64,000 bases of DNA from Chitinophagales bacterium (GTDB lineage Bacteria > Bacteroidota > Bacteroidia > Chitinophagales > Saprospiraceae). Shown in pieces: positions 2,802 through 36,304 of the stretch. The stretch is taken from the NCBI GenBank assembly GCA_038226035.1, contig JBBRQS010000003.1, forward strand, positions 61,351-125,350. The letters are read 5' to 3'. Numbering within the stretch: position 1 is the stretch's first letter; the number at the start of each line of letters is the position of its first letter. A program made the translations under genes and the position numbers. The notes below the pieces were generated by a model. It searched no databases. It was not told the DNA's origin and saw only the letters and a list, made by a program, of their open reading frames with translations.

Positions 2802-4631
<1,830 letters not shown>

Positions 4632-5021: not shown

Positions 5022-5239
5022 ATGAATTATGAATTATGAATTATGAATTATGAATTATGAATTATGAATTATGAATTATGAATTATTTTTCGGAGGTAAT
5101 TCATAATAATTAACTGATGTTACTCAAAGGCGCAGCGCACCGAAATATTAAAAATCAAGGACACGTTTAAGATTTCGTTTCGTTGCGCTTCTATGTTTAA
5201 CATCAATTCATAATTCATAATTCATAACTCATAACTCTG
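5022..5239. repeat. inverted heptamer arrays: (ATGAATT)x9 at 5022-5084 and (AATTCAT)-type x5 at 5205-5239, with about a 120-nt spacer
   Basis: Period-7 tandem repeat read directly. The second array is its reverse complement and starts 2 nt after the stop of the 5242-6657 gene. Confidence 0.9.
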
Positions 5240-5241: not shown

Positions 5242-6657
5242 TTATCCTTTAAAAAGTTTGGTTAACATTTCCGGAACTTGAAATGCTTTCAGGTTTTTCG
5301 CCACTATTACATGGTTTGCATCAAGAATATAAATTTCGGGGGTGATATCAATATAATATTTTTCATGGTAACGGCTTTCGAGTTGCGGATCCCAAACATC
5401 CGTCCAATTAATACCGTATTTATCTTCAAACTCCGTCCATTTTTTATGGTCATTCGCATTAGCTGCGATGCTGAACACTTCTAAACCTTTCGGTTTCCAT
5501 TCGTCATAAATTTTGCGCAATTGCGGGGTTTGTTCCTGACAATGTTCGCAATCCGGATTGTAAATAAAAACAATCGTGAACTTCGATTTCAATTCGTACA
5601 AAGATTTATACGCATTGTTTTTGTCGCGTGCGCGCACATCTTGTCCGATTTTACCCATTAAACTCGGTTGAATTTTTGCGGCGGTTTCCTGCAAACCTTT
5701 CATATCGGCAGGCGTTTCCCAATTGACTTTATCGGCGTAATAATATTTTTGAATGAGATGTGCGTATACAGCTTCTCCGTCCATATAGGTCGTTTGTGTC
5801 GGGCGATACTGATAAGTTATCCAACTCAAACAATATTTAAAAACATCGGGGTTGGCTTTGGCGCGTTCGACGATATAATCGGCAGAACTGATGAGCGAAT
5901 CATTGCTTTGAAGCGTTAACTCGAATAAATATTTTTTCAGTTTGTTATGAAAAACGGGCGTATTCATCAGTCTCGAATCGCTGAAATCAAAATCGTTCCA
6001 CCAATCGTTTTTGTAATTGTTCATCGTCGCTACCGTATCCATCGCACCGGTGCTTGTGTTGACGATACGCACTTTCGGATTTTGTCCCGCTAAACGAAAT
6101 TTGGTATAAAACGCGCCGGGTTTTGTTTTTTTCAATTCCACGAATCGGGTATCGCGTTCATCAAGCAAAACTTGTTGTTGTTTTTTTATATCGGCAGCCA
6201 ATGCCGGATTAGCTTTGTATTGATCGTTCAGTGCGTTGAATTTTGCTTCCAATGCCGTCTGATATTTTTGTTCGTTATAGAAAAGCGTATTTTCTTCGGA
6301 ATTTTGAACCGTAATGCTGTTAAGCAAATTATTTTTATCGGCACTAAAAACCGGATTTTCACCGTTAGCAATCAGCAATTGAAAATTTTGTTTATCCGGC
6401 AACAACAAATAATAGTAGCCTTCGGTGTACCCCGCAATTTTATGGAACACTGCCGTACCGTCGGCGGCAATAGTTGCCGAATCCGCTAAATAATTTTGAT
6501 CGGCATATACACCCAATAATTTTGCCGTACCGTTGTTGTAACCGTTGAGATGCAGCGTCACTTGAGTAGATTTTGCCGGCGTTTTTACGGACGGTTGCTG
6601 CGCATTACTGCAAGAGAGCGGAATGAGAAAAAGAAAAGAGAGTTTTAAAAAATTCAT
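5242..6657 (-). CDS. TlpA/AhpC-like thioredoxin-fold thiol:disulfide oxidoreductase, exported
   Basis: Start moved to Met46 (MNFLKLSFLFLIPLSCSNAQ signal peptide). CxxC motif in YNPDCEHCQ within a C-terminal thioredoxin-like region. The upstream extension of the ORF is K/F-rich junk. Confidence 0.75.
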   Translation of the reverse strand: MNFLKLSFLFLIPLSCSNAQQPSVKTPAKSTQVTLHLNGYNNGTAKLLGVYADQNYLADSATIAADGTAVFHKIAGYTEGYYYLLLPDKQNFQLLIANGENPVFSADKNNLLNSITVQNSEENTLFYNEQKYQTALEAKFNALNDQYKANPALAADIKKQQQVLLDERDTRFVELKKTKPGAFYTKFRLAGQNPKVRIVNTSTGAMDTVATMNNYKNDWWNDFDFSDSRLMNTPVFHNKLKKYLFELTLQSNDSLISSADYIVERAKANPDVFKYCLSWITYQYRPTQTTYMDGEAVYAHLIQKYYYADKVNWETPADMKGLQETAAKIQPSLMGKIGQDVRARDKNNAYKSLYELKSKFTIVFIYNPDCEHCQEQTPQLRKIYDEWKPKGLEVFSIAANANDHKKWTEFEDKYGINWTDVWDPQLESRYHEKYYIDITPEIYILDANHVIVAKNLKAFQVPEMLTKLFKG

Positions 6658-6881
6658 GGAAAAATTCGGATTTACGATTTTGGATTTTATTTTTTCTTCA
6701 ACGAAATTTTTTTTAAAAAAATGCAAATTTAATCGAAATTTTTTTTTAAAAAACCGATTTTTTAAAAAAAAACAACTTCGCGTTTCCCTCAAATAAAAAT
6801 TGCTTAAAGAAACGTAATTTCTTTAAACAATTTTTATGTATCTCGAAAACAAAATTACTTCATACTTCATATTTTAAAAGA

Positions 6882-7409
6882 TTATCCTTGTTTAACCATC
6901 TCGATATTCAATTGTAATTTTACTTCATCGCTTACGACCAAGCCGCCCACTTCTGTTGGAGCATTCCAAACTAAACCGAATTTGGAGCGGTTGAGTTTAC
7001 CTTCCGCATCGAAACCGGATTTGACTTGCCCGAAACTATCCGTCATCGTGCCATGAAAATCTACCATAAATGAAATAGGGTCGGTTACGCCGTGCATCGT
7101 TAAATTACCTGTGAGCAACAAACTTTTATCATTGTATTTTCTGACGTTGGTAGATTCAAAATTAATTTTAGGATATTTCGCCACGTCAAAAAAATCGGGA
7201 CTTTTCAAATGTTCATCTCTTTGTTCGTTGTTTGTAGAAATACTGTCCACATCAATATCGAAATGTAATTTAGCATCAGAAAAATCCGCTAACGCGCTTT
7301 CCATCGTTGAATTGAATTTACTGAAAATACCCGATACGGTTGAAATCATTAAATGTTTGATTTTGAAATGCACTTCCGAGTGTATCGGATCTAATTTAAA
7401 AGTTGCCAT
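6882..7409 (-). CDS. YceI family (polyisoprenoid-binding) protein
   Basis: N-terminus FKLDPIHSEVHFKIKHLMISTVSGIFSKF and about 175 aa length are typical of YceI-like proteins. Confidence 0.75.
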   Translation of the reverse strand: MATFKLDPIHSEVHFKIKHLMISTVSGIFSKFNSTMESALADFSDAKLHFDIDVDSISTNNEQRDEHLKSPDFFDVAKYPKINFESTNVRKYNDKSLLLTGNLTMHGVTDPISFMVDFHGTMTDSFGQVKSGFDAEGKLNRSKFGLVWNAPTEVGGLVVSDEVKLQLNIEMVKQG

Positions 7410-7566
7410 GATTTTTTTTTTTAAGTTTTAGAAAAATTGAGCTCGATAGGCAAAGATAGTTGATTAATGGTAAATGCAAATTTTCAAATTTCAAATTTAT
7501 AACGCTAAATATTAAGAGTAAAAAACGTGTTTTTGCATTTGAAAATTTACCATTTTGTATTTACCA

Positions 7567-7917
7567 TTAATCAACCTCCCCTTCGATAGAAATATATTCT
7601 GCTTTTCGTTGTCCGTGCAGCCAGACGGCAATTTTTTTATGGAAATAACCGGTTTTTTCGGCATCGTAGTTGATTATAAGTACGCCTTGTTGATGCGGTA
7701 AAGTCGGTGCTTTATCCCAATCGCCGGCAGTGCAACTGCAATCGGTGCGCACATTATCAATTATCAGAGGCAAATCGGAAACATTCGTGAAAGTAAATCG
7801 TTCGGAAACCGGTTTGCCTTTCGGTATCGTACCAAAGTCATGAGCAGTCGGCGATAACCAATGAATTTGTGCCGGTGCGTACAGCGAGAAACAAAAAATA
7901 TAGATGAGTATAAACAT
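7567..7917 (-). CDS. DUF1573 domain protein
   Basis: Signal-like N-terminus. HDFGTIPKGKPVSERFTFTNVSDLPLIIDNVRTDCSCT matches the DUF1573 pattern (F.F.N.G..PL.I..V...C.CT). Confidence 0.65.
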   Translation of the reverse strand: MFILIYIFCFSLYAPAQIHWLSPTAHDFGTIPKGKPVSERFTFTNVSDLPLIIDNVRTDCSCTAGDWDKAPTLPHQQGVLIINYDAEKTGYFHKKIAVWLHGQRKAEYISIEGEVD

Positions 7918-9349: not shown

Positions 9350-9410
9350 AATAACCGGTATAAAAAAAGCCCGTGAAATAATTTCACGGGCTTTTTTTAT
9401 ACCGGTTATT
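9350..9410. terminator. 61-bp perfect palindrome / bidirectional terminator
   Basis: aataaccggtataaaaaaagcccgtgaaat | a | atttcacgggctttttttataccggttatt. The inner GC stem is flanked by A/T runs. It lies between convergent genes. Confidence 0.7.
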
Positions 9411-10811: not shown

Positions 10812-10865
10812 TAGCCGATAGCTGATAGCGTTTAGCTGATAGCTGTTGGCTGATAGCTATCAGCC
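10812..10865. repeat. heptamer array (AGCTGAT-type) with internal palindrome ggctgatagctatcagcc
   Basis: tagccgatagctgatagcgtttagctgatagctgttggctgatagctatcagcc. It overlaps the last codons and the stop of coaX. Confidence 0.7.
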
Positions 10866-11590
10866 ATAGTCCAATTTAAAATCCTGTTTAACCCGATTAA
10901 TACGAGATCGCGCTCGTAAAATTTATTTTTTATTTTGATGTTTTCGTATAAAAACGCGCCTTCACCACCCGTAAATACGGCTTGCAGCGCAGGATATTGT
11001 TTTTCGTATTGCTTTATCCAACCTTTTACTTCGTGTATAAAACCTTTTTGTACACCGATTGTTAAGCCTGAAATTGTATCGTGCCCGATAAATTCATCGG
11101 CTGTGTTGCCGTCGAAATCCAAGAGCGGCAACCTTGCCGTAAAATAATTCAAAGCCTTGTAACGCATTTTTAATCCTGCCGTAATACAGCCGCCTTGAAA
11201 ACACGCGTCTTCATCTAAAAAATTAAAAGTGAGCGCAGAACCGGCATCAACGACCAAACATGCTTTATCCGGATACAAAAAATGCGCTGCCACAACACCG
11301 GCTAATCTGTCTTTGCCGAGCGTTTCCGGCGTGCAGTAATTATTTTTTATCGGAACCGGTATGTCGTGCGTTAGACGTATGACGTTAAAATGCGCATCAA
11401 GATATTTTTTTACCGCTTCCGGTTCAATACCCGATGCGGAAACGATAACATTTTTTATATCGAACGCGGCACATTTTTCTTTCAAAACCTCTAACGATAA
11501 AGATTCCCATATCGCTTTCCCGATGCGTGTATTTTTTTCAAAAACGGCGCATTTAACTCGCGAATTACCGATGTCGAGTACTAAATTCAT
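10832..11590 (-). CDS. coaX: type III pantothenate kinase
   Basis: MNLVLDIGNSRVKCAVF N-terminus, later DAGSALTF and TGG motifs, about 250 aa. The last ~10 codons (MADSYQPTAIS) are translated from the heptamer array. Confidence 0.85.
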   Translation of the reverse strand: MNLVLDIGNSRVKCAVFEKNTRIGKAIWESLSLEVLKEKCAAFDIKNVIVSASGIEPEAVKKYLDAHFNVIRLTHDIPVPIKNNYCTPETLGKDRLAGVVAAHFLYPDKACLVVDAGSALTFNFLDEDACFQGGCITAGLKMRYKALNYFTARLPLLDFDGNTADEFIGHDTISGLTIGVQKGFIHEVKGWIKQYEKQYPALQAVFTGGEGAFLYENIKIKNKFYERDLVLIGLNRILNWTMADSYQPTAIS

Positions 11591-11784
11591 ATTTTTCAAA
11601 AAATCGGCGAAAGATAGTATTCTTTTTTTGAAATTATTACAAAGTTTTTAAAGATATCGCGGATTTTTGCTTTCCGGATTTTTCAATCTCCTTGAAACAA
11701 AAAAATTTATGCAAATTTTCTTTTATTTTTATCTACCTTTGTGTTGAATTTACACGTCGTACAAGTTGTATATCTTAAAAGGTA

Positions 11785-12248: not shown

Positions 12249-14762
12249 ATGACAATCATTAAACAACATAAAAATAAAATTTTTACTGTTTTCTTCACTC
12301 TGATTTTTTTTAACGCTCCAAGTTTTGCGGGTGTAGAAAACAGTTCATCTTTCGTCTTTCGTTTTTCATCGTTCTCGAACAAATCCACGTTGTCCGGAAA
12401 AATTTTTGATTCCGAAAATAAAACGTCTTTAATCGGTGCTTCGGTTTATATCCACGATTTAAAACTCGGCGCGGTGAGTGATGTGGACGGTAATTATCAG
12501 TTCATAGAATTACCGGCGGGTACTTTTTTGGTAGAAGTGAGTTTTATCGGTTATAAAACCGTATCCAAAGAAGTAACGATTAAAGACGATACAAAAATGG
12601 ATTTCGATTTGACGGAAACCCCGATTGAACAATCGGAAGTCGTCGTCACCGGTTTGTCGAAAGCGACACAAGTTCGCAGAAGTCCGATACCGATTGTGAC
12701 AATTAAGAAAGAATATATTGATAGTCACGTCGGCACAAATGCTATCGATGCTATCAGTGCGATTCCGGGTGTGTCAGCTGTAACGACCGGTCCGAATGTG
12801 TCGAAACCGTTTATCAGAGGTTTGGGTTACAATCGAATTTTGACTTTGTACGACGGTGTTCGACAAGAAGGACAGCAATGGGGAGATGAGCATGGTGTAG
12901 AAGTGGATCAGTACAGCGTAGATCATTACGAAGTCGTGAAAGGTCCGGCAAGTTTGAGTTACGGATCCGATGCATTGGCAGGTGTGGTGAATTTAATTCC
13001 GACACAACCGCCTACCGACGGTAAAATTATTGGCAATTTACTCGCCGATTATCAATCGAACAACGGTGCGTTCGGCGGTTCGGCGATGTTGAGCGGCAAC
13101 AACAACGGTTTGGAATGGTCGGGACGTTTGTCGCACAAACAAGCGACGAACTACGAAAACAAATTCGACGGTCGCGTGTTCGGCACGGCATTTAATGAAA
13201 CCGATGCTAATGCGTCTGTCGGCATACATAGAAAATGGGGTTACTCGCACTTGAATTTTGTTTTGTACGACAATTTTCAACTGATTCCGGACGGCAGTCG
13301 CGATTCGGCGACCAGAAAATTCACGAAACAAATAACGGAAGCCGATGATTTTCGTCCGATTGTGTCCGACCAAGAATTAACTTCTTACTCCATTACCGAT
13401 AAACCGCATCAGCATATTCAGCATTACCGCGTTTTTTGGAACAATAATTTTGTCATCGGCGATGGTTTATTGACGGCAAATATCGGTTTTCAACGCAGTG
13501 TACGCCAAGAATTTTCGCATCCTGAACGACTCGATATTTCAGGCTTATCTTTGCAACTCAATACATACAATTACGATTTGAAATATGCCTTGCCGGAAAT
13601 TAAAGGTTGGAATGTTTTGCTTGGCGTGAACGGTATGTATCAAAATAATACTGTAACGGGAGGAACAGAATTCGTAATTCCGTCTTATAACCAATTCGAT
13701 TTCGGTCCGTTTGCATTAGTCAAACGCAGTTTCGGCGCGTTGGATATTTCCGGAGGTATTCGATACGACACGCGCTTTTTTAAAAATGATGCACTTTATA
13801 CGGTGCCGAATAAATCAACGGGTTTTGATACACCGGTTTCAAACGATGCCGGCGGAGAGCAACGGTTTTCGGAAAACAGTCATAATTATTCCGGTGCTTC
13901 GGGTAGTTTGGGTTTTACTTATAATTTTTCAAATGCTTTTTCCGTAAAAGCCAACATCGCGCGCGGCTATCGCGCACCGAATGTTTCCGAAATTACTTCC
14001 AACGGTGTGCATCCCGGCACGAATGTCTATCAAATCGGCAGAGCGAATTTTATTCCGGAGTTAAGTACGCAAGAAGATATCGGTATGGTGTATGCTTCAA
14101 AATACGTTACGGCGAGTTTGAGCGTTTTCAATAATAATATCGACAACTATATTTTTAATGAAAAATTGATAAACGTGCACGGTGAGGATTCGGTTATCGT
14201 TGCCGGAAATCAAACTTTTCAATTTCAACAAGGTGCGGCGCGACTTTACGGCGGTGAGTTGAGTTTCGATATTCATCCGATAGCCTCCATTCATTTTGAA
14301 AACGCGCTATCACTCGTAAACGGAGATAATGAAAAACCGATTGTAAGTATTTCGCCTGACAGTTCCAAATATCTGCCGTTTATTCCGCCGCTTCACGGCA
14401 CGTCGGAATTGCGTTTCAGTACCGATTTTAAATCCGCGCACATCTCCAATTTTTTTGTTTACGGACAACTGTCTTATTATGCCACACAAAATCGCGCTTT
14501 TTTAGCTTACGGCACGGAAACGCCGACGCTCGGTTACACGCTCGCCAATATGGGTATCGGTGCTACGTTTACGAATAAAAAAGGTAAAAGTATTTTAAGC
14601 GCAACACTGCTCGGAAATAATATTTTTGATGTAGCGTATCAAAGTGGTTTAAGCCGATTGAAATACTTTGAACCTTACCCGAATAATTTTACGGGCAGAA
14701 ACGGTATTTATAACACGGGCAGAAATATCAGTCTTAAATTGATTGTACCGTTTGAGCGGTGA
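12249..14762 (+). CDS. TonB-dependent receptor with N-terminal carboxypeptidase-regulatory-like domain
   Basis: LSGKIFDSENKTSLIGASVYI...DGNYQF..LPAGTFLVEVSFIGYKT (CarboxypepD_reg). Plug motifs (ISAIPGV, PFIRGLG, LYDGVRQEGQQWGDEHG). Long barrel. Confidence 0.85.
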   Translation: MTIIKQHKNKIFTVFFTLIFFNAPSFAGVENSSSFVFRFSSFSNKSTLSGKIFDSENKTSLIGASVYIHDLKLGAVSDVDGNYQFIELPAGTFLVEVSFIGYKTVSKEVTIKDDTKMDFDLTETPIEQSEVVVTGLSKATQVRRSPIPIVTIKKEYIDSHVGTNAIDAISAIPGVSAVTTGPNVSKPFIRGLGYNRILTLYDGVRQEGQQWGDEHGVEVDQYSVDHYEVVKGPASLSYGSDALAGVVNLIPTQPPTDGKIIGNLLADYQSNNGAFGGSAMLSGNNNGLEWSGRLSHKQATNYENKFDGRVFGTAFNETDANASVGIHRKWGYSHLNFVLYDNFQLIPDGSRDSATRKFTKQITEADDFRPIVSDQELTSYSITDKPHQHIQHYRVFWNNNFVIGDGLLTANIGFQRSVRQEFSHPERLDISGLSLQLNTYNYDLKYALPEIKGWNVLLGVNGMYQNNTVTGGTEFVIPSYNQFDFGPFALVKRSFGALDISGGIRYDTRFFKNDALYTVPNKSTGFDTPVSNDAGGEQRFSENSHNYSGASGSLGFTYNFSNAFSVKANIARGYRAPNVSEITSNGVHPGTNVYQIGRANFIPELSTQEDIGMVYASKYVTASLSVFNNNIDNYIFNEKLINVHGEDSVIVAGNQTFQFQQGAARLYGGELSFDIHPIASIHFENALSLVNGDNEKPIVSISPDSSKYLPFIPPLHGTSELRFSTDFKSAHISNFFVYGQLSYYATQNRAFLAYGTETPTLGYTLANMGIGATFTNKKGKSILSATLLGNNIFDVAYQSGLSRLKYFEPYPNNFTGRNGIYNTGRNISLKLIVPFER

Positions 14763-17414: not shown

Positions 17415-18263
17415 ATGGCATTAGACCAAGTAGATGTAGATGTAGCGGAAAAAAAACCGGGCGACGAAATGTCTTTCTGGGAACATTTAGAAGAATTGCG
17501 CGCGCGGTTGATAAAAGCGATATTAGCAATTACAGTCGGCGTTGTAGCGGTTTTCGCTTCCGGCGATTGGGTTTTCGAGAAAATTATTTATGCGCCCCGC
17601 AATCCGGGTTTCGTTACGTACCAAATGATGAATTGGCTGTCGGTAAAACTGAATATGCCGAGTTTAGCCATGAAACCGATTCCCGTAAAAATGATAGCGA
17701 TAGAAATGGGCGAACCTTTTTTTAAACAAACACAAGTTGCCATTATTTTAGGTTTAGTGATTGCCAGCCCGTATGTTTTTTGGCAGTTGTGGCAATTCAT
17801 TAAACCCGGATTAAAGGATAAAGAAGCCAAAGCAGCGAGCGGTTTTGTCGGTATTTGTTCCGGATTATTTTTATTCGGGGTTTTGTTCGGTTATTTTATC
17901 ATCGCGCCTTTCGCCATTTCTTTTTTATCGAGCTATACCATCGGCGGTGTAGGTGGCGAAAACGTAACGCTCAACTCTTACATCGGCTACATGACGATGT
18001 TTACTTTACCGATTGGTTTGGTATTTGAACTGCCGATAATTATTTATTTGTTGGCGCGTTTGGGCGTAGTATCTGCAGATTTTCTGAAAAAATATCGCCG
18101 CCAAATGATTGTGATTCTGCTTATCGTAGCCGGTGTTATTACGCCTGGTCCTGATGTGGTATCTCAATTATTGGTTTTTGTACCTTTGTATTCTTTGTAT
18201 GAAATCGGTATTTTGGTAGCAAAACGCGTTCATAAACAAAAACAATTAGAAACAGCAAGTTGA
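17415..18263 (+). CDS. tatC: twin-arginine translocase subunit TatC
   Basis: MSFWEHLEELRARLIKAILA start region, six hydrophobic segments, about 280 aa. ATG at 17415 preferred over TTG at 17388. Confidence 0.85.
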   Translation: MALDQVDVDVAEKKPGDEMSFWEHLEELRARLIKAILAITVGVVAVFASGDWVFEKIIYAPRNPGFVTYQMMNWLSVKLNMPSLAMKPIPVKMIAIEMGEPFFKQTQVAIILGLVIASPYVFWQLWQFIKPGLKDKEAKAASGFVGICSGLFLFGVLFGYFIIAPFAISFLSSYTIGGVGGENVTLNSYIGYMTMFTLPIGLVFELPIIIYLLARLGVVSADFLKKYRRQMIVILLIVAGVITPGPDVVSQLLVFVPLYSLYEIGILVAKRVHKQKQLETAS

Positions 18264-18347
18264 TTTACGATTTTGGATTTACGATTTACGATTCCGACAC
18301 ATTTAAGGCTTCATAAATCCAAAATCATAAATCGTAAATCGTAAATC
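18262..18347. repeat. inverted heptamer arrays (GATTTAC / GTAAATC family)
   Basis: gatttacgattttggatttacgatttacgatt ... aaatccaaaatcataaatcgtaaatcgtaaatcc. The left arm begins inside the tatC stop codon. Confidence 0.85.
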
Positions 18348-18352
18348 CACAC

Positions 18353-18649
18353 ATGGAGCAACAAGAAAAAATTTTACAATCTTTATTCCGGAAGCTGGGT
18401 GAAAAAAAAGAACCGGAAGAAATAGTCGCCGACCCGCGATTAAAGAATGAAGTTTTTACGACCATAGATGCGACTTCTTTAATCGCCGATGTGTTGGACC
18501 TGTTTACTGCCAAATTTCTAGATGCGCAGGCGGAAATTATCAATGTCCTTCCGGGTAGTAACTACGGCAACGATAAACAAAACCTTTTACGCTATTTTGA
18601 AAAAAAATATCAATCAGCTAAAACGACGGACTTTAACGATGAACGATGA
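18353..18649 (+). CDS. hypothetical small protein
   Basis: 98-aa ORF with an ATG start, bracketed by hairpin arrays. Its stop codon lies inside the AACGATG array. No recognisable domain. Confidence 0.45.
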   Translation: MEQQEKILQSLFRKLGEKKEPEEIVADPRLKNEVFTTIDATSLIADVLDLFTAKFLDAQAEIINVLPGSNYGNDKQNLLRYFEKKYQSAKTTDFNDER

Positions 18650-18743
18650 ACAATGAATGTTTTTTAAAAAGTTCATCGTTCATCGTTCATCGTTAAAAAG
18701 GATCATCGTAAAAAAAAAGTTCATCGTTCATCGTTTATCGTTA
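18634..18743. repeat. inverted heptamer arrays (AACGATG / CATCGTT family), three arms
   Basis: taacgatgaacgatgaacaatgaat ... gttcatcgttcatcgttcatcgtta ... gttcatcgttcatcgtttatcgtta. Confidence 0.85.
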
Positions 18744-18750
18744 AAAAAAA

Positions 18751-19581
18751 ATGGGTGAATTAAACAGACTGTGGTATTTATTTACGGAATCTTTACGCGT
18801 TTTCGCGGAAAAATTCAGAGATACCATACCCAATTTATTGGGCGGTATTATTGTGCTGCTGATTGTTTTGTTGTTGGCGCGTTTAATTTCCGGCGGCATT
18901 GAGCGGTTGTTGCGCACGATCTCTTTCGACAAATTCGCGGAGCGCGTACATATCACACGGTTTTTGCAACAAGCCAACATCACTGTATCACCGAGTTTTA
19001 TTATCGGGCGATTTATTTATTGGGTATTTATTTTGCTCATCATTTCCTCTGCTGCCGAAACGTTGAATTGGATTCCCGTCTCGTATCAAATTCAACGTTT
19101 TTTAGAATACCTCCCGCATTTTGTCACCGCCGTGATTATACTCATCGTCGGTTGGTACTTCGCTACCGTGATTCGAGATTTTTTGCGCCGTTCAATGGGT
19201 TCACTCGGCATCAGTGCCGGGCGGGTGCTGAGTACTGCCATTTATTATTTGTTGTTCATCATGATTGCGCTTACAGCACTCGAACAAGCGCGCGTGGATA
19301 CGCGCATTTTATCTACGAATTTGCTTATTATTATAAGTTCGGTGATGTTAGCGGCAGCCATTTCTTACGGTTTTGCTTCGCGCGATGTGCTGTCTAATAT
19401 TTTAGCCGGATTTTTTAACAAACGCACTTTTCAAAAAGGCATGACAATTGAAGTAGATGGTGTACGCGGCGTAATCATGGATGTGACAAACATTTCCATC
19501 ACACTTCAGGTCAATGAAAATGAACGCGTCGTTATTCCGTCGCAAATTCTTTTGAATAATAAAGTAAAAATAATTAGTTGA
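18751..19581 (+). CDS. mechanosensitive ion channel (MscS-like) family protein
   Basis: Several TM helices followed by GMTIEVDGVRGVIMDVTNISITLQ...RVVIPSQ beta-domain, as in MscS-type channels. Confidence 0.7.
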   Translation: MGELNRLWYLFTESLRVFAEKFRDTIPNLLGGIIVLLIVLLLARLISGGIERLLRTISFDKFAERVHITRFLQQANITVSPSFIIGRFIYWVFILLIISSAAETLNWIPVSYQIQRFLEYLPHFVTAVIILIVGWYFATVIRDFLRRSMGSLGISAGRVLSTAIYYLLFIMIALTALEQARVDTRILSTNLLIIISSVMLAAAISYGFASRDVLSNILAGFFNKRTFQKGMTIEVDGVRGVIMDVTNISITLQVNENERVVIPSQILLNNKVKIIS

Positions 19582-19651
19582 TTTACGATTTACGATTTAC
19601 GATTTTTCTAAAAAATTGAATCGTAAATCCAAAATCGTAAATCGTAAATCC
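19580..19651. repeat. inverted heptamer arrays (GATTTAC / GTAAATC family)
   Basis: gatttacgatttacgatttacgattt ... aatcgtaaatccaaaatcgtaaatcgtaaatcc. The left arm begins inside the stop codon of the MscS-like gene. Confidence 0.85.
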
Positions 19652-19658: not shown

Positions 19659-20525
19659 ATGCGCGGAATTATTTTAGCCGGCGGCCTCGGCACCCGATTA
19701 TATCCTTTAACGTTGGCGGTGAGTAAACAAATGATGCCGGTGTATGACAAACCGATGATCTATTATCCGTTGAGTACACTCATGCAAGCGGATATCCGCG
19801 AAATACTCATTATTTCTACGCCATACGATTTACCGCATTTCAAAAAACTGTTCGGTTCGGGTGAAGAAATAGGTGTTAATTTTCATTATAAGGTGCAAGA
19901 AGTGCCTAACGGACTGGCACAAGCGTTTGTTTTGGGCGAAAAATTTATCGGACACGACGACGCAGCACTCATACTCGGCGATAATATTTTTTATGGTGCC
20001 GGTTTGAGCGAACTGATGCAAGCTTCCAATAAACCGAAAGGCGGTGTGGTGTTTGCGTATCAAGTAGCCGATCCGGAACGCTACGGTGTTGTCGAGTTTG
20101 ATAAAAATTTAAAAGCTGTTTCGATAGAAGAAAAACCCGAAAAACCTAAATCGAATTTTGCCGTGCCGGGTTTATATTTTTACGACAATTCAGTGATAGA
20201 CGTTGCCAAAAACTTGCAACCATCGCCGCGCGGAGAATACGAAATTACGGACGTGAATAAATATTATCTCGAAAAAGGTTTATTGCAAGTCGGCGTACTC
20301 GGGCGGGGTATGGCTTGGTTGGATACCGGCACACACGAATCTTTGTTGCAAGCCGGACAATTTATACACACCATCGAAGCGCGTCAAGGTTTAAAAATCG
20401 GTTGTATTGAAGAAATCGCGTGGCAAATGGGTTTTATTACCGACGCTCAATTTGAAAAACTCGGACATAAATACATTAAAAGCGGTTACGGAGAATATCT
20501 TTTGCGATTATTAAAAAATAATTAA
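19659..20525 (+). CDS. rfbA: glucose-1-phosphate thymidylyltransferase
   Basis: [39 protein letters not shown] and the rest of the protein match RmlA/RfbA over the full length. Confidence 0.9.
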
Positions 20526-20528
20526 TTC

Positions 20529-21182
20529 TTGAAAATTAAAGCTGTCGGCATAACGAATTTAACGGACGCCCGGTATTTTGCAGCGCAAGGTGCCGAGTGG
20601 ATGCATTTTGATTTCAGAATCACCTCACCGTTTTATATCGAATCGGCAAATGCGGAAGCAATTATGAATTGGGTAGATGGAATTGATTTTGCGGGAGAAT
20701 GGGCAACGCATGATGTAGATATATTGAATCAGAATTTGCGCGATACACACATCAAAGCCATACAAATCGGAGAAGATTTTCCGATTGAAAACATTCCGCT
20801 CATTGAAGCAGATACCGTTTTCAGAAAAATTTTTGTTTTTGAACATATTGACAGTGCGGCGTTGCAAGCACGTATAGACATCGGGCAATTAAATTCCGAA
20901 ATAAGCCATTCGAAGCGCGTCATTACCGAAATTATTTTTCCGAAAAACGGTTTTCACGGTTGGTTTGGTGGCGATAATCCAACAAATTTTGCGTCATTAA
21001 AACATTTAACCGAAAAATTTTCCGTTTCTTTGGATATTAATTTCAACGAAAATGATTGGGTGCAATTAAAACAGCTCGATTTGTATGCGCTGTGTTTGCA
21101 TGGTGGTGAAGAAGAACAAGTAGGCGTAAAATCTTATGATGCATTGGATAATATTTTTGATGCTTTGTCTGTTTACGATTGA
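20529..21182 (+). CDS. TrpF-like (phosphoribosylanthranilate isomerase family) protein, divergent
   Basis: TTG start. N-terminus KIKAVGITNLTDARYFAAQGAEWMHFDF resembles the PRAI pattern K.CGIT...DA......GAD..GF. The rest is divergent. Confidence 0.4.
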   Translation: MKIKAVGITNLTDARYFAAQGAEWMHFDFRITSPFYIESANAEAIMNWVDGIDFAGEWATHDVDILNQNLRDTHIKAIQIGEDFPIENIPLIEADTVFRKIFVFEHIDSAALQARIDIGQLNSEISHSKRVITEIIFPKNGFHGWFGGDNPTNFASLKHLTEKFSVSLDINFNENDWVQLKQLDLYALCLHGGEEEQVGVKSYDALDNIFDALSVYD

Positions 21183-21748: not shown

Positions 21749-21797
21749 TTTTTGGGAATAATTTTTTAAAAATTTTTTGTGAAAATTATTTAAGAAT

Positions 21798-21838
21798 AAA
21801 AAAATCCGCGCGAAAATTTTTTCGCGCGGATTTTTTTA
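21798..21838. terminator. bidirectional rho-independent terminator
   Basis: aaaaaaatccgcgcgaaaa tt ttttcgcgcggattttttt between convergent genes. Confidence 0.8.
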
Positions 21839-21885
21839 TTCTTACTAAAAAAAATTCGGTAAAAATTATAAAAAAATTAAAAACA

Positions 21886-24412: not shown

Positions 24413-24413
24413 A

Positions 24414-24437
24414 AGTATGAAGTATGAAGTATGAAGT
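24414..24437. repeat. heptamer array (AGTATGA)x3 plus a degenerate inverted partner near 24465-24497
   Basis: agtatgaagtatgaagtatgaagt starts 2 nt after the sigma-factor stop. Downstream, ...ctacttcata... is only partly complementary. Confidence 0.7.
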
Positions 24438-24521
24438 TTAAAATCATTAAAGCTTATAGACCATAATTCATAAACTCTACTTCATAATTTATAATTTTTT
24501 AAAGCTGTTTCAGCAATTACT

Positions 24522-30645: not shown

Positions 30646-30748
30646 GGATTTGCGATTTTGGGTTTTCGATTTAAAAAAATATTTTTTTTGAAATTCTAAT
30701 ATCCCGTTCCAAAAAAAATCCAAAATCTAAAATCCAAAATCGTAAATT
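30646..30748. repeat. inverted heptamer-type arrays between the two tRNA genes
   Basis: ggatttgcgattttgggttttcgattt ... aaatccaaaatctaaaatccaaaatcgtaaatt. Same family as 18262 and 19580. Confidence 0.7.
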
Positions 30749-30986: not shown

Positions 30987-32783
30987 ATGCTCACCAAAGA
31001 TTTCTATAATATAATTGATAAAGAACTTGAACAAATCATCGTAGAAAATAAAAACGATGAATTTATTAAGAAATATCACAAGTCAGTTGATAATCAGAAA
31101 TCGTATGCGTTGTTGATTTGGTTTTTGCAATTTTACAGAAAAGCAAACGGTTATTTTAATTCTATAACGGACGGTAATAATGATAAATCTTGCGATATAG
31201 TTTTTGAGCGGCAAAACAATAAAGGCGAAAAAATATTTTATATTGTTCAATCAAAATGGAACAATGCTGCTAATGCCGAAAAAGAAACGAGCAGAGACGA
31301 AATATTGAAAGCATTAATCGAATTTAATACAATACTAAGAAGTGAAAAACTCAATGTCAATGAAAAATTAACAGAGCGTTTAAAGGAATTAGATGTTCAC
31401 TTAAAAGCAAATGGTGAAGTGAAATTTATTTTTCTTTCGTTAGCAAATTACAAAGGTGGTGCGGATGACGATGTAAAAGCATTCATTAAGAGCCACCCTA
31501 AAACCCAATTTGAAGTAGTTGACATCGAAAGATTGAAATCGGATTATATTGATAGAAATTACAAAGATATTTCGCCGATTAATCCTTTAGAAAAACAAGA
31601 AAATGCTGAAACATCACCCATATCACTACTCATTGAACGCTTGAATAAAAATGGTGGCAATATCATTAAAATTGAAAAACCATTTGACGCTTATATTTTT
31701 CTCTTGCGTCCGAAAATGATTCACGAACTTTTTGAAAAATTTAATTTTGGTTTGTTTTTCAAAAACGTCAGAAACCCTTTATTGGAATCACAGTTCAATG
31801 AGCAAATTGAAAAAACGGCGATAGACAATCCTGCTTTCTTTTGGTATTATAACAATGGTATCACTGGCATCACAAGATTTATGCCTGATGAAATTAGAAA
31901 TGAAGCGGTTAGTATTCCATTAACCGGTCTGCAAATTATTAACGGTGCGCAAACTGTTTACGCCATTTATCGCGCTTACGAAAATGCAAGTGAGGTTAAA
32001 CGTTTAGAACTTGATACACAAATGCTTGTTTCGTTAAGATTATTTCAATCCGGCGGAACGGATTTTGATCTTAACGTAACCCGTTTCACCAATTCACAAA
32101 ATCCCGTTACCGACAGAGATTTCCACGCGAACGACGAAGTTCAGATTCGTTTGCAGGAAGAATCTTTTAATACTAAGGTGTGGTATGAGAAAAGGAGAGA
32201 TGAGTTTAGAGTTTTGCCTGGTGAAGTTGAGGTTGTGTCGAATGAAATCTTTGCGATGCAGTATTTAGCCTATCAGTTACAAGATCCACTATCTGTTTAT
32301 AAAAATAATTCTCGAAATAATATTAATTTCATCTCAATCAAAGAAAATGAACGAGGACTATATGAAAAGATATTCAATGAGAAAACTATTTTTGTAGATA
32401 TGCTTTGTGCCCATTATGTCTACAAGATGGCTTTACAGGCTAAAATAGAATTAGCTTACGGATATTTTTATCTGGGGCTAATAAAATTAGTTTTAACTAA
32501 ATATTTTATTTTAAAGCATAAAGACCAAAAAAATATTGATAAAATTAATGTGAACATTAAATTAATTGATCTTTGGGATAAAAAGGATACTAATTTAATT
32601 TTTAAAACTTTCCATTTTATAGCTCATTTATTTGATCAAGAAAAAATGGAATACAAAAATCAAAATCATATAAGTGGAGCTATTACTGATTTAAGGGATT
32701 TAGAAATTGTCTTTTCTATTCTAAAGAAAAAAATAGAATCTTCAAATATTCCAATTGAACAAATCGAAAGCATCCAACTCTAA
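30987..32783 (+). CDS. AIPR (abortive infection phage resistance) family protein
   Basis: N-terminal ITDGNNDKSCDIVF and central FKNVRNPLLESQFNEQI...FWYYNNGITGIT...LQIINGAQT are the AIPR signatures. Visibly more AT-rich than its neighbours. Confidence 0.8.
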   Translation: MLTKDFYNIIDKELEQIIVENKNDEFIKKYHKSVDNQKSYALLIWFLQFYRKANGYFNSITDGNNDKSCDIVFERQNNKGEKIFYIVQSKWNNAANAEKETSRDEILKALIEFNTILRSEKLNVNEKLTERLKELDVHLKANGEVKFIFLSLANYKGGADDDVKAFIKSHPKTQFEVVDIERLKSDYIDRNYKDISPINPLEKQENAETSPISLLIERLNKNGGNIIKIEKPFDAYIFLLRPKMIHELFEKFNFGLFFKNVRNPLLESQFNEQIEKTAIDNPAFFWYYNNGITGITRFMPDEIRNEAVSIPLTGLQIINGAQTVYAIYRAYENASEVKRLELDTQMLVSLRLFQSGGTDFDLNVTRFTNSQNPVTDRDFHANDEVQIRLQEESFNTKVWYEKRRDEFRVLPGEVEVVSNEIFAMQYLAYQLQDPLSVYKNNSRNNINFISIKENERGLYEKIFNEKTIFVDMLCAHYVYKMALQAKIELAYGYFYLGLIKLVLTKYFILKHKDQKNIDKINVNIKLIDLWDKKDTNLIFKTFHFIAHLFDQEKMEYKNQNHISGAITDLRDLEIVFSILKKKIESSNIPIEQIESIQL

Positions 32784-32829
32784 AACAAAAGCGGCTTAAC
32801 TCAATTTCGAGTTAAGCCGCTTTTGTTTT
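32782..32829. terminator. bidirectional rho-independent terminator
   Basis: aaaacaaaagcggcttaactc aatttc gagttaagccgcttttgtttt between convergent genes. Confidence 0.8.
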
Positions 32830-35127
32830 TCAAACTTCACCAATACCTTCTAATACGCCCGAATACAATTTTACTTTTTTATCGCGTATCCACCAACGCA
32901 ATAATATCGGATTAATGAACAAATCGCTCATTAAAGCGGTAACGAGGGTGACGGCGATAATTTTGCCGATAGTAACGGAGGGTGGATGAATGGAAAAAAT
33001 CATAACCAAAAATCCGAAAAATAAAATAATAGTTGTGATGCACACCGGTTTACCGGTTTCTATGAGTGTAGTGTGCAAAGCTTCATCAACGGTTTCGCCT
33101 TTGCCGCGATTGATGTTGAACGTACTTAAAAAATGTATCGTATCATCAATCGCAATGCCGAACACGACGGTAAATATCATGGAAATGCCGGCATCAAGCG
33201 GAACGCCCATGTAACCGACCAAGGCACCCGCAAATATCAACGGGAATAAATTAGGAATCAGGAAAATAAAAATCATGCGCACGTTGCGGAGCATAAACGC
33301 CATAAGCAGCGCAATGAGACCGACTTCCCAAAAAATACCTTCCACTAAATCGGAACGCACGTACATGGCGTTTTTGTCTATGATATAACCGGTACCGGTA
33401 CGGCGGAACGTAGCAATATTTTTATCGGTGTTAGCGGCTATCCAAGCATCAATTTTATCGCCGACTGCCATCACTGAATCGGCTCCCAAATCGAGAATGC
33501 GCGTGGCAATGCGCGCTTTGGTTCCGTCTTTTGATTGTAGAATATTAGCAGTCGCTTTCGGCAATTTTTCAGCCATGCGTTTGAATTCGTTGAATTGCAG
33601 CGAATCGTCGGGCAATTTGTACGCTTCGGCGCGATTGCTGTTGTTCATTAGGTTCAAACTTTTATAGATAATCGTCGGCGAAGTCACCGAGCGAATAGCG
33701 GGTTGTGCCGACAAATAATTTTCTACTTTTTCTACTTGTTTCAAGACTTCTAAATTATCGATATGCCGACCATTTTCAGCAAACACGGCGTATTCGAGCG
33801 GACGAAAGCCGGCAAAAACTTTTTCAAAAAAGCTGAAGTCTTCCGTAATTTTTTGTCCGCGCGGCATATTACCCATAATATTATAGTTGGTCGTGATGCG
33901 GGTAGTGCCGTAAATGCAAATCCCTAAAATCGCAATAGCTACTACGGCAATTGTGCGTGCGCGCGTTTTTGTGAATTGATACACCCATTCCATAAATTTT
34001 TCGATATACGCTGCACCGCTTGACGCTTGTTGCAGTTGTTCGGCGGAAAAATACGGCAACACTGCGGTTGTAAAAAGCAATACGGTTACGTAGGCTACCA
34101 TAACACCGACGGCAGCATTAATACCGAAATCCTGAATCGGCGTGATGCGACTGGTGACCAATGTAGCAAAGCCGACCGCAGTTGTAACGGCGGTCATTAA
34201 AGTTGCCAAGCCGATTTCTTTTACCGTGCGCGCAATCGCTTCATCTTTTGTATGCCCGAACCGGAGTTCATCAATGTACTTGGAAAGCATGTGGATAAAA
34301 TCGGAAGTGCCGATAATTACCATTAACACCGGATACAAAGCTGCCATCGCGCTTAATTCACGTCCCCACAAACCAAGAATACCAAAGAAAAACAGCATCG
34401 AAAAACCGATTGACAGCAAGGCTAAAACCATGGTGCGCCACCGGCGGAACAAAACAATGATGATCAAGGCGACCAAAACGGCAGCAACGGCTGTTGATAC
34501 CGCGACTTCGCGTTTTTCCATCCAGACTAATTCTTTCTGGAAATTAGCGCGACCGAGATAATGATATTCCGAAAAATTAAAAGTACGCATCAACGAATCC
34601 AAGCCTTGCATCATCACTTCCGATTCGGGTAACGATAAACGATCTTTGGTTTTCAGGAAAAGTACGGTAGAGGAAGCATCTTCGGAAATAAAATTTTTCA
34701 CGAAGCGCGGATCGTGTGTAATGCGTTGTTTGTCTTCTTCGTACCGCGACGTATCTTCGATATGCAGAACGGGAATGGCGGAAACACCTAAAAAAGTTTT
34801 TACGGGCAATTGAATTTTCGTCAGCGATTGGTCGTCGTGCACATACGGTAATGCAACGGCGGCTTCGGTGAGTGAATCGAATTTTCTTAAAAAATTTTGC
34901 TCGAAAATATTGCCTTTATTACCTACACCAACCAAAAGAAAATTATCATCGGTTTCAAAATTTTTTATAAAAGATTGAAAAAACTGCAAATCCGGATCTC
35001 CCTGCGGAAAATATTGCTCAAAATCAAAAGAAAAATGAAGCGTTGAAATAAAATAAATCGAAGCAAAAAAAGCTGCCGCGAAAAAAACGATAATTTGTTT
35101 GCGCCAACGGATAAAATGATCAACCAT
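32830..35127 (-). CDS. MMPL/RND-superfamily membrane transporter
   Basis: Two blocks of 5-6 TM helices, each preceded by a large loop. About 765 aa. SSD-like segments (GIAIDDTIHF). Confidence 0.75.
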   Translation of the reverse strand: MVDHFIRWRKQIIVFFAAAFFASIYFISTLHFSFDFEQYFPQGDPDLQFFQSFIKNFETDDNFLLVGVGNKGNIFEQNFLRKFDSLTEAAVALPYVHDDQSLTKIQLPVKTFLGVSAIPVLHIEDTSRYEEDKQRITHDPRFVKNFISEDASSTVLFLKTKDRLSLPESEVMMQGLDSLMRTFNFSEYHYLGRANFQKELVWMEKREVAVSTAVAAVLVALIIIVLFRRWRTMVLALLSIGFSMLFFFGILGLWGRELSAMAALYPVLMVIIGTSDFIHMLSKYIDELRFGHTKDEAIARTVKEIGLATLMTAVTTAVGFATLVTSRITPIQDFGINAAVGVMVAYVTVLLFTTAVLPYFSAEQLQQASSGAAYIEKFMEWVYQFTKTRARTIAVVAIAILGICIYGTTRITTNYNIMGNMPRGQKITEDFSFFEKVFAGFRPLEYAVFAENGRHIDNLEVLKQVEKVENYLSAQPAIRSVTSPTIIYKSLNLMNNSNRAEAYKLPDDSLQFNEFKRMAEKLPKATANILQSKDGTKARIATRILDLGADSVMAVGDKIDAWIAANTDKNIATFRRTGTGYIIDKNAMYVRSDLVEGIFWEVGLIALLMAFMLRNVRMIFIFLIPNLFPLIFAGALVGYMGVPLDAGISMIFTVVFGIAIDDTIHFLSTFNINRGKGETVDEALHTTLIETGKPVCITTIILFFGFLVMIFSIHPPSVTIGKIIAVTLVTALMSDLFINPILLRWWIRDKKVKLYSGVLEGIGEV

Positions 35128-36223: not shown

Positions 36224-36304
36224 AAGACGTTGGACGTTGGATAAGTTTAATTTTTCCAATCTCCACCGTCAAAAATTAAATTCCACCGTCAAAAAATTCA
36301 AAAA

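Follow-up and report, generated by a model that had tools for sequence, protein, structure and literature searches.

Many gene boundaries of a Saprospiraceae bacterium (Chitinophagales; GenBank assembly GCA_038226035.1, contig JBBRQS010000003.1) carry hairpins whose two arms are inverted arrays of a tandemly repeated 7-nt unit. We analysed 64 kb of the source genome (positions 61,351 to 125,350 of the contig, here called the window and numbered from its first base) together with fragments of the genomes of relatives. The analysis centres on the genes tatC, orf98, an MscS-like gene and rfbA, between which such hairpins are found. The arrays are tandem heptamer repeats of the kind known as STRR (repetitive DNA made of short tandem repeats) or long simple sequence repeats (SSRs), and they are mostly arranged as inverted pairs. 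We lean towards regarding them as hypervariable, self-complementary microsatellite hairpins that are driven by STRR-type slippage, have proliferated in one Saprospiraceae clade and are tolerated at cistron boundaries, where they perhaps couple translation; this is the explanation to which we give somewhat more belief than disbelief. The first description of heptamer tandem repeats dates from 1990 and concerned cyanobacteria; the classical units STRR1-3 are CCCCAGT, TTGGTCA and CAACAGT.

Hairpins between tatC, orf98, the MscS-like gene and rfbA

According to Pfam, the focal stretch encodes TatC, a conserved 98-residue protein without a family match (orf98), an MscS-like channel and RfbA, in this order. 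A preliminary description made from the sequence had claimed that every boundary in this series is occupied by a heptamer structure, and we found a hairpin at all three. At the tatC/orf98 boundary, the 5' arm (18262-18293, on the forward strand like all arms in this stretch) consists of 4.6 copies of GATTTAC/GATTTTG and has the TGA stop codon of tatC (18261-18263) in its foot; the 3' arm (18311-18349, GTAAATC/CAAAATC) ends shortly upstream of the orf98 ATG at 18353. At the MscS/rfbA boundary, 3.7 copies of GATTTAC form the 5' arm (19580-19605), again with a stop codon in the foot (MscS TGA, 19579-19581), and the 3' arm (19619-19651, 4.7 copies of GTAAATC/CAAAATC) ends 8 nt before the rfbA ATG at 19659. 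The minimum free energies (MFE) of these two hairpins are -26.9 kcal/mol (z = -5.9) and -27.8 kcal/mol (z = -7.6), respectively.

The orf98/MscS boundary (18634-18742) has one 5' arm and two 3' arms. The 5' arm (18634-18657, 3.3 copies of AACGATG) overlaps the last codons and the stop codon of orf98. Both 3' arms are made of 3.4 copies of GTTCATC. The proximal one (18671-18694) co-varies with the 5' arm across relatives, whereas the distal one (18719-18742), which ends 9 nt before the MscS ATG at 18751 and is an alternative partner of the 5' arm, stays TTCATCG in the window and in the relatives L083 and L085. The minimum-energy fold pairs the distal arm, while the centroid pairs the proximal arm.

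By direct reading, the 3' arms of the three hairpins end 6-9 nt ahead of the ATGs at 18353, 18751 and 19659, and at the other end it is the first array unit that supplies the stop codons of tatC, MscS and orf98. Folding of the arm pairs had been put forward as a check, and all focal hairpins fold better than dinucleotide shuffles (z between -2.6 and -7.6, with energies from -21 to -37 kcal/mol).

A simple origin of one arm as the mirror copy of the other was considered and rejected, since the order of the variant units is not mirrored in the tatC/orf98 hairpin of the window, nor in the MscS/rfbA hairpin of L085. In a phage copy of the GATTTAC family (L093, see below) the variant order is, unlike that of the tatC/orf98 hairpin of the window, perfectly mirrored.

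Period-7 arrays in the window

A lag-identity scan of the window yielded 14 period-7 arrays with at least 3 copies, but only 0-5 arrays for each other period between 4 and 21. In 30 dinucleotide-preserving shuffles of the window, the mean number of period-7 arrays was 0.13 and the maximum 1. Within the window, the excess of period 7 over other periods is thus clear. The claim that heptamers are repeated 3-9 times at no fewer than nine sites also proved correct, as Tandem Repeats Finder and the lag scan placed period-7 arrays at all the coordinates where the preliminary description had put them. What had been overlooked there are a hairpin (7459-7575) and two short arrays (6856-6871, 36226-36241).

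The heptamer sites, of which there are at least 12, are dispersed over the 64 kb. They represent at least 10 unrelated unit families, several of which are present at 2 or 3 sites each. The units are AT-rich, contain at most 3 G, and have neither G-tracts nor G-quadruplex potential. Eleven of the 14 arrays are intergenic, compared with an intergenic share of the window (outside long open reading frames, ORFs) of 15% (binomial p = 2.6e-7), and arrays lie within 1-8 nt of a stop codon at 5237, 18262, 18635, 19580, 24413 and 38617. The location at gene ends that had been claimed for nearly all arrays is hence borne out by these numbers, but it does not apply to 45482-45540, which lies inside the coding sequence of a pullulanase gene.

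When a partner was defined as a reverse-complement array with up to 2 mismatches in 14 at a distance of up to 200 nt, 10 of the 14 arrays had one. An inverted partner, as had been described, is therefore usual but not universal: the arrays at 41883-41912 and 63701-63737 stand alone, 24413 has a degenerate partner, and 10812-10865 is mostly direct. Pairing of the arms in several registers was confirmed by an inverted-repeat search, in which, for example, 5022 and 5205 pair in five registers.

The arrays are not an assembly artefact, since an independently assembled Logan contig (run SRR19962015), which breaks off within GATTTAC arrays, matches 18264-19607 with 100% identity. The same hairpin architecture was seen in ENA, NCBI and Logan assemblies of relatives, and this recurrence in independent assemblies led us to reject an assembly or amplification artefact. 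A CRISPR-like array (clusters of short palindromic repeats at regular intervals) was rejected as well, since the units are 7 nt long and there are no spacers. No array of the unit TAACTGA is present in the Tandem Repeats Finder list of the window, and in an Rfam scan of the window at gathering thresholds only two tRNA-Arg genes passed.

Heptamer hairpins are distinct from intrinsic terminators

The window contains more than 10 canonical terminators (A-run, GC stem, T-run), which are often bidirectional; examples are found at 9350-9410, 21791-21844, 32794-32841, 49606-49638, 50710-50757, 55455-55492, 55920-55967 and 57486-57529. At least 6 of the 9 convergent gene pairs have such a terminator. 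One terminator (21791-21844) was compared with a relative, L085 (about 87% nucleotide identity), which has retained the stem. The heptamer stems of the window, in contrast, are AT-rich and 25-40 bp long, with internal loops and with the next start codon close behind. None of them is followed by a T-run (the sequences after the stems are CCACAC, AAAAAGG and CGGAAAC), and no heptamer hairpin was picked up by the terminator scans. Most of the hairpins lie between co-directional genes, 5-15 nt upstream of the next start codon; one separates an extracytoplasmic function (ECF) sigma factor gene from the anti-sigma gene, and another separates two tRNA-Arg genes.

The heptamer hairpins are thus distinct from the standard intrinsic terminators of this organism. 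With no T-run on the stems and true terminators present separately in the window, ordinary intrinsic terminators were rejected as an explanation. Two earlier proposals are not borne out here. A role as terminators finds no support in the anatomy (no T-run, mostly co-directional junctions, location between the ECF sigma and anti-sigma genes). The hairpins are also not a default gene-end structure in Bacteroidota, because the stems have no T-runs and the window has its own canonical terminators; moreover, the arrays are confined to one Saprospiraceae clade, as described in the next section.

Two repeats were noted at the terminators themselves. The terminator stem AACCGCCTCGCAAAC...GTTTGTGAGGYGGTT is present twice (55455-55492 and 55920-55967), flanking an 88-residue ORF without a family match (55586-55852), and a perfect 24-mer repeat (AATTTTTTTGGGTTAGTTAAATGT, 2.4 copies, 49635-49692) directly follows the terminator at 49606-49638.

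Distribution and turnover among relatives

TatC assigns the window to the Saprospiraceae; its best match, with 77% identity, comes from a metagenome-assembled genome. The density of period-7 arrays is 2.2 per 10 kb in the window (inverted partner for 10 of 14 arrays), 3.4 per 10 kb in genus-level relatives (16 of 20), 0.76 per 10 kb in relatives with a TatC identity of 58-67% (7 of 9) and 0.24 per 10 kb in more distant Saprospiraceae (1.07 Mb; 6 of 26), where all values for relatives are underestimates because short-read assemblies break at arrays. The contigs L001, L012 and L085, for instance, end inside arrays. The density is about tenfold lower outside the clade of the window, and the enrichment in heptamer arrays is a trait of one Saprospiraceae clade and not of Bacteroidota in general.

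Homologues of the MscS protein provided a series of orthologous junctions with decreasing nucleotide identity (L083, about 95%; L085, 87%; L086-88, 83-86%; L090/91, 78%), to which L002 and L006 were added. A search of metagenome contigs with the MscS protein yielded one distant locus only (61% identity), which did not help in comparing junctions. In this series, arrays lengthen, shorten and switch their unit in steps of 7 nt (occasionally 8 nt) on the time scale of strains and species, and both arms stay complementary while the units change. Copy numbers that differ between related strains had been named as a sign of slippage, and they are already seen between the window and L083: the arms at MscS/rfbA have 3.7/4.7 units in the window and 2.5/3 in L083, and the proximal 3' arm at orf98/MscS has three copies of TTCATCG in the window and five copies of TTCATAG in L083. 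L083 is in the middle of a sweep, as one unit of its 5' arm is already the compensating AACTATG. The units of the 5' and 3' arms of the orf98/MscS hairpin are GATGAAC and GTTCATC in the window, GATGAAG and CTTCATC in L090 and L002, GATGAAT and ATTCATC in L006, and CAATGAA/AAATGAA and TTCATTG/TTCATTT in L085.

Turnover can also be complete. The 3' end of tatC keeps an inverted-array hairpin in the relatives, but with unrelated units (GATTTAC, GAGCTTT, AAGTGAT, GGATAAT with up to 15 copies, and the 8-mer GCGCAAAG). At MscS/rfbA, the window lineage has the GATTTAC family, which is the same as 1.3 kb upstream at tatC/orf98, including the preceding AGT codon; a stem of the CGGTTAGTC type is present in L087, and period-8 arrays of the CGGTTAGTC type are found in L090 and L006.

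Whole hairpins come and go at the same junctions. L086-88 have no hairpin between orf98 and MscS, which overlap by 8 nt. The window, L083 and L085 have 3-4 nt between rfbA and the gene after it, where a 50-nt hairpin is found in L090 and an 84-nt hairpin in L006. Downstream of RlmN, the 55 nt of the window compare with a 189-nt hairpin in L085, and the junction between the DUF1573 gene and the gene of a 547-residue protein has a hairpin in L092 but not in the window. Since close relatives differ in this way, no single hairpin is essential. At rfbA, the end of the protein differs too: RfbA terminates in ...LLKNN* in the window (20500-20530) and in ...LLDR* in L006 (2988-3075), where the stop codon is inside the array. 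The rfbA-end hairpin of L090 is located at 11508-11559; hairpin insertion alters protein C-termini.

In L009 and L013, the hairpin at the 3' end of tatC takes up all the DNA between two convergent stop codons. The heptamer unit of L009 and L011 is the same as the A-tract and stem base in the core of a canonical bidirectional terminator (AAAAGTGCCAAACG..CGTTTGGCACTTTT), which suggests that arrays may be seeded from ordinary hairpins. A separate observation concerns L008 (10680-13000), where about 2.2 kb of extra DNA, apparently an insertion into the array, splits the first left-arm units of the tatC 3' hairpin from the rest.

Polarity of the arms

The base composition of the two arms is strongly polar. 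In 31 of 32 hairpins, many of which are related by descent (they comprise at least 15 unit families), the 5' arm has more G than C and the 3' arm more C than G. The 5' arms contain 71 stop triplets and 37 ATG, the 3' arms 43 stop triplets and 2 ATG. This difference arises because C is absent from stop codons, while every start codon includes a G. Since an inverted repeat reads alike on both strands, there are two polarity kinds of hairpin. Single arrays obey the rule as well: the G-rich type follows the stop codon of the gene that ends at 6882, and the C-rich type is found upstream of the TPR gene and of lipB. The stem is precisely placed relative to the stop codon: of 24 co-directional junctions, 22 have the 5' base of the predicted stem no further downstream than the final base of the stop codon, and in the remaining two it is found 1 and 2 nt past that base. 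The stability of the stems, on the other strand, is much the same: the sense stem was the more stable one in 11 of 23 cases (p = 0.27). This lack of bias fits a generator that acts symmetrically on DNA.

Proposed slippage and arm correction, and a possible role in translational coupling

To account for these features, we propose that the arrays are generated by slipped-strand mispairing within each arm, combined with a correction from arm to arm that could consist of template switching within the hairpin, of selection for pairing, or of both. The configurations which survive would be those that leave gene boundaries intact, and placement and polarity would reflect this. The G-rich, C-poor 5' arm would face the incoming ribosomes, and its 7-nt period would spread stop triplets over all three frames. 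The C-rich, G-poor 3' arm, being almost free of ATG, GTG and TTG, could serve as leader for the gene that follows. Being self-complementary, the insert would loop out, so that stop and start codon stay spatially near. In the mRNA, the stem may mask the downstream leader until a ribosome that terminates on the upstream gene melts it.

Translational coupling at co-directional junctions would be the most likely functional consequence, although we put it forward tentatively and rate its chances below even. Such coupling would preserve or enforce a link at junctions which overlap or are 3 nt apart in hairpin-free relatives. In 3' untranslated regions (UTRs) and where genes converge, such stems would do no more than lengthen or cap the 3' end of the transcript.

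Several observations weigh against this explanation. Coupling cannot be general, since some hairpins separate two stop codons (L009-L013) or two tRNA genes, one precedes a terminator in a 3' UTR and one is located within a coding sequence. They are dispensable, given that their presence differs among close relatives. The outright replacement of the family at MscS/rfbA by the one 1.3 kb upstream looks like copying rather than gradual drift. A purely RNA-level element would be expected to show a sense-strand bias, which is missing here. The slippage model seems to offer no explanation for the step size of 7 nt, and in judging the model from the sequence, operon structure is assumed. Finally, the GATTTAC/GATTTTG family is identical across phyla, and to this we turn now.

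Recurrence of the GATTTAC/GATTTTG family and alternative explanations

The comparison across phyla covered viral and plasmid collections. A pattern scan found GATTTAC-family hairpins in two viral contigs with 64% and 58% GC. One of them, L093 (GC 0.64), has a perfect 79-nt palindrome with 38-nt arms at 1821-1899, an arm of which is identical to window 18262-18293 over 32 of 32 nt. It is part of an insertion of about 100 nt between the stop codon of the terminase large subunit gene (TerL) and the next gene; L173, a phage 84% identical to L093, has an overlapping TGATG and no hairpin at the same junction. Among plasmids, a BLAST search with the GATTTAC hairpin matched Planktothrix agardhii only, apart from one weak partial match in Escherichia coli, and one Planktothrix agardhii record has GATTTAC-family matches at up to 38 places. 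On that plasmid, a small gene that lies between MmeI and DrmD is flanked by (GATTTAC)6(GATTTGG)7, a loop and (GTAAATC/CAAAATC)n. On L095 (Planktothrix agardhii plasmid NZ_LR882964.1), inverted GATTTAC, GATTTGG and GATTGGG arrays at 1950-2120 and 2500-2770 flank the gene of a four-helix-bundle protein between an MmeI restriction-modification gene and the DISARM gene drmD; one of the arm types belongs to a family of the window.

Direct arrays of three copies are found in the viral collection 33 times for GATTTAC, 25 times for TTTCGGA (= GATTTCG), 6 times for GATGAAC and 12 times for a permuted control heptamer. Part of the viral sharing of GATTTAC may thus be background, since the control gives 12 arrays against 33. 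In the viral contigs, 15 of 29 distinct (GTAAATC)n arrays have the start of a long ATG-initiated ORF within the 40 nt downstream of them, compared with 1 of 29 for the opposite orientation; for (TCCGAAA)n the numbers are 6 and 2, for the control heptamer 1 and 0. A BLAST search of the phage collection with the GATTTAC hairpin gave no match, and neither did a search of the plasmids with the GATGAAC and ACGAATT hairpins, to which low-complexity masking may contribute; the inverted GATGAAC pattern had no match in the viral contigs. The identity of the family across phyla, including the 32 of 32 nt of the phage arm, implies that local slippage is insufficient and points to horizontal spread or to a sequence-specific role.

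The main rival of the slippage explanation, though in our view an unlikely one, is that the hairpins are miniature mobile palindromic elements, comparable to MITEs (very small transposable elements with inverted repeats), to REPINs (inverted-repeat pairs derived from repetitive extragenic palindromes, REPs) or to palindrome-associated transposable elements (PATEs). The enzyme would be encoded elsewhere, the targets would be tightly spaced stop and start codons, and the heptamers would be the terminal inverted repeats. Mobility would fit the joint occurrence of GATTTAC and GATTTTG in the same 5'-to-3' polarity at three sites of the window, on the Planktothrix agardhii plasmids and in the two viral contigs, as well as the insertion of the L093 palindrome exactly at the TGATG of the 84%-identical phage. 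The replacement at MscS/rfbA within the genus by the tatC/orf98 family with its AGT codon, and the presence of several families at two or three sites of the window, also favour it. However, a sequence-specific transposase is hard to reconcile with at least 10 unrelated unit families in 64 kb, and there are more in relatives. Single-base changes of the unit sweep in situ at one junction, and neither target-site duplications nor fixed ends were seen; the arms vary in unit number and the loops of different copies are unrelated. No Y1 transposase, no REP-associated tyrosine transposase (RAYT) and no other transposase was detected among the 52 window proteins that were scanned against Pfam, and the 12 viral arrays of the control heptamer may reduce the weight of the 33 of GATTTAC.

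A rather improbable explanation is that the hairpins are selected elements at RNA 3' ends, either as terminators or attenuators that are independent of a U-tract, or as REP-like blocks to 3'-to-5' exonucleases as in E. coli operons. The stems are very stable and begin at or a few nucleotides from stop codons, the hairpin at the 3' end of tatC persists through a complete turnover of its sequence, and at the convergent junctions of L009-L013 the array stem encloses a canonical-looking terminator core; transcript stabilisation has also been proposed for cyanobacterial STRR (PMC2670836). Yet the stems of the window have no T-run, while conventional terminators are found elsewhere in it, one of them kept in L085, and the hairpin at 5022-5237 has its own canonical terminator behind it. 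One hairpin lies inside a sigma/anti-sigma pair, which would normally be co-transcribed, the sense strand is no more stable than the antisense strand, and orthologous junctions of close relatives do without a hairpin.

We would give just as little credit to a broader idea, according to which the hairpins belong to a class of junction elements that spread from phylum to phylum, with the stop-rich G arm first and the start-free C arm second. These would be inserted precisely between overlapping or adjacent stop and start codons and might act as portable coupling or leader modules that are moved or generated by an enzyme.

Hardly credible as a general explanation are multivalent heptamer-binding sites for a protein or ribosomal component (e.g. 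S1, Csp or a CsrA-like protein) with the inverted copy as a mere antagonist: the orientation of viral (GTAAATC)n relative to ORF starts (15 of 29 versus 1 of 29), the like placement of TAACTGA repeats, for which a post-transcriptional regulator was proposed (PMC4679880), and the constancy of the distal 3' arm beside the MscS ATG while the rest of the hairpin changes would agree with it, but recognition of a specific sequence cannot be general because unrelated units fill equivalent positions and are freely replaced at one junction, and conservation across phyla is limited to the GATTTNN superfamily.

Other arrays and neighbouring genes

The remaining arrays of the window are found in a variety of settings. 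The hairpin at 5022-5237 (reverse strand) belongs to the 3' UTR of a thioredoxin-like gene (5242-6792, reverse strand), downstream of which it lies; its arms, 9.3 copies of ATGAATT (5022-5086) and 4.3 copies of AATTCAT (5205-5237), are about 120 nt apart, and a separate canonical terminator follows at 4778-4760. The hairpin at 7459-7575 (reverse strand; z = -7.2) has 33-nt arms of partly heptameric, partly 14-mer units (TGGTAAA...) and is located between a DUF1573 gene (7567-7917) and a YceI gene (6882-7409), both on the reverse strand. The AGCTGAT/AGCTATC array at 10812-10865 (reverse strand) contains the short palindrome GGCTGATAGCTATCAGCC and overlaps the 3' end of a pantothenate kinase gene (10832-11599, reverse strand). 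At 24413-24510 (forward strand), 3.6 copies of AAGTATG directly follow the stop codon of the ECF sigma factor gene, and the degenerate partner (CATAATT.. ACTTCAT) precedes the anti-sigma gene; this is the weakest hairpin (z = -2.6). The spacer between tRNA-Arg(CCG) and tRNA-Arg(CCT) is filled by a hairpin of the GATTTTG/GATTTGC family (30646-30748, reverse strand).

A GCGAATT/ACGAATT hairpin (38564-38617, reverse strand; z = -5.9) directly follows the stop codon of a TPR gene (38621), and three copies of TAATTAA (38522-38542) adjoin the start of the gene after it. Upstream of the TPR gene lies the single array AATTGCG/AATTGTG/AATTACG (41883-41912, reverse strand), which is C-rich and G-poor in the sense of the gene and is reduced to a single copy in L092. 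In the other single array (63701-63737, reverse strand), ATTTCGG is repeated 5.3 times, corresponding to (TCCGAAA)n in lipB orientation; depending on the start codon, the array is located 5 nt upstream of a TTG start at 63696 or inside an N-terminal extension from an ATG at 63747. In addition, there are two perfect period-13 arrays, one upstream of the TPR gene (41915-42003, 6.8 copies of AAAATAAAAAACG) and one between lipB and the next gene (62792-62913, 9.4 copies of TTTTTCGTAAATT). The former is missing in L092, which is about 87% identical, and has thus expanded recently.

The array inside a coding sequence is a hairpin of the GATTTCG family at 45482-45540 (forward strand; MFE -34.7 kcal/mol, z = -4.8), which is in frame within the gene of a type I pullulanase (45062-47098). 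It encodes a surface loop between the CBM48 and the catalytic domain, which is 7-8 residues longer than in nine aligned homologues and in structure 6jeq. In a 90%-identical relative, the same loop is encoded by a different heptamer array (six copies of AGCYATY).

At 2796-3538 and 14331-14458, L068 (from a Saprospiraceae genome with 54% GC) has a higher-order repeat of about 80 nt made of GAGTAGA/GAGTAGG heptamers. TTTAGGG, which is the unit of plant telomeres, is present in five copies, and the block recurs in inverted form 11 kb away.

Genes of the conflict or defence type are located at 1464-4631, 30987-32783, 42930-44642 and 56720-57481 of the window. Two caspase-domain proteins are encoded, one with MORN repeats and one with an FGE-sulfatase domain. 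An AIPR abortive-infection protein adjoins the tRNA-Arg pair, and the window also encodes a TOTE-system S1/CSD protein and a GmrSD_N protein.

Comparison with known systems

Heptamers have been reported as the most over-represented long SSRs in many bacteria, with slippage as the proposed cause (Mrazek 2007, as summarised in PMC4679880 and PMC4692102). STRR hairpins between cyanobacterial hupS and hupL were proposed to act in transcript stability or translational coupling (PMC2670836), and in Nostoc, expression is influenced by heptamer repeats that lie upstream of recF and recO (bioRxiv 10.1101/2022.06.06.494920). In Xanthomonas, GGGAATC forms 70-75 convergent array pairs per genome that are capable of stem-loops or cruciforms (Rehm et al. 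2015, PMC4692102); whether an array is single or paired is conserved between species there, while lengths vary (PMC4692102). TAACTGA direct repeats a short distance upstream of start codons are known from Beggiatoaceae, cyanobacteria and five Bacteroidetes (MacGregor 2015, PMC4679880), with one inverted case among 170 and a patchy distribution across phyla that suggested horizontal spread (PMC4679880); other heptamer repeats share intergenic regions with TAACTGA in the same Bacteroidetes (PMC4679880). In a REPIN, two inverted repeats together make up a hairpin (PMC3116915). Papers from 2009, 2015 and 2022 still treat the function of heptamer repeats as unresolved and their proposed origin as speculative (PMC2670836, PMC4679880, PMC4692102, bioRxiv 10.1101/2022.06.06.494920).

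In the light of this literature, the preliminary view that no description was known of inverted heptamer hairpins as the default gene-end structure in Bacteroidota has to be narrowed, as precedents exist in Xanthomonas (PMC4692102) and at the cyanobacterial hupS/hupL junction (PMC2670836). For Saprospiraceae, our full-text literature searches found no description. What is new here is the concerted evolution of the arms, the polarity rule, the junction-precise gain and loss, the in-frame invasion of a gene and the presence of one family across phyla. Due to its unusually dense series of junctions (about 95%, 87%, 83% and 78% nucleotide identity), the clade lends itself to asking what STRRs do and how they arise, and the predictions, which concern slippage with arm-to-arm correction, boundary-safe insertion and translational coupling as candidates, apply to a group of organisms without Shine-Dalgarno-led initiation. 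On the practical side, the arrays break short-read assemblies and alter C-terminal tails (rfbA, tatC, orf98) and protein loops (pullulanase). If the sharing of GATTTAC across phyla is due to transfer and not to convergence, it would represent a new kind of very small mobile DNA.

The likeness to cyanobacterial STRR that had been pointed out from the start is well founded, since the excess of period 7, the intergenic dispersal and the change of copy number between strains were all found. Both consist of tandem 7-nt units, with several families per genome in intergenic or intercistronic, hairpin-capable positions, and GATTTAC/GATTTTG itself occurs in inverted, gene-flanking form on Planktothrix agardhii plasmids. 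The host, in contrast, is here a member of the Saprospiraceae, the units are not the STRR1-3 units given above, and inverted pairs predominate (10 of 14 arrays in the window, 16 of 20 in genus-level relatives). With the Xanthomonas GGGAATC arrays the hairpins have in common the intergenic excess of heptamers, the convergent pairs and the variation in length between species. Xanthomonas, however, has a high-GC genome and a single G-rich unit that could form G-quadruplexes, whereas we found many AT-rich families whose units turn over in both arms together. TAACTGA repeats resemble the 3' arms and single arrays of the window in their fixed orientation a few nucleotides upstream of start codons, but they have another unit and are nearly all direct, and hairpin formation is outside their description.

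REPs, bacterial interspersed mosaic elements (BIMEs) and REPINs with their RAYT are likewise intergenic, often intercistronic, hairpin-forming and present in many copies, and E. coli REPs affect mRNA stability. They differ in being one or a few conserved sequences of 20-40 nt per genome, linked to a RAYT gene and without tandem heptamers, whereas the window has many families with an internal 7-nt periodicity and no RAYT. Rickettsia palindromic elements, which Ogata et al. in 2000 reportedly described in frame within protein genes and in surface loops, offer a parallel to the in-frame palindrome that is tolerated in the surface loop of the pullulanase (45482-45540), but they are dispersed elements of 100-150 nt with a conserved sequence, not tandem heptamers. 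Intrinsic terminators, finally, share the stem-loop right after the stop codon, and in L009 and L011 the arrays even flank a canonical terminator core; a GC-rich stem with a T-run belongs to the terminators, whereas the heptamer stems described here are AT-rich and have none.

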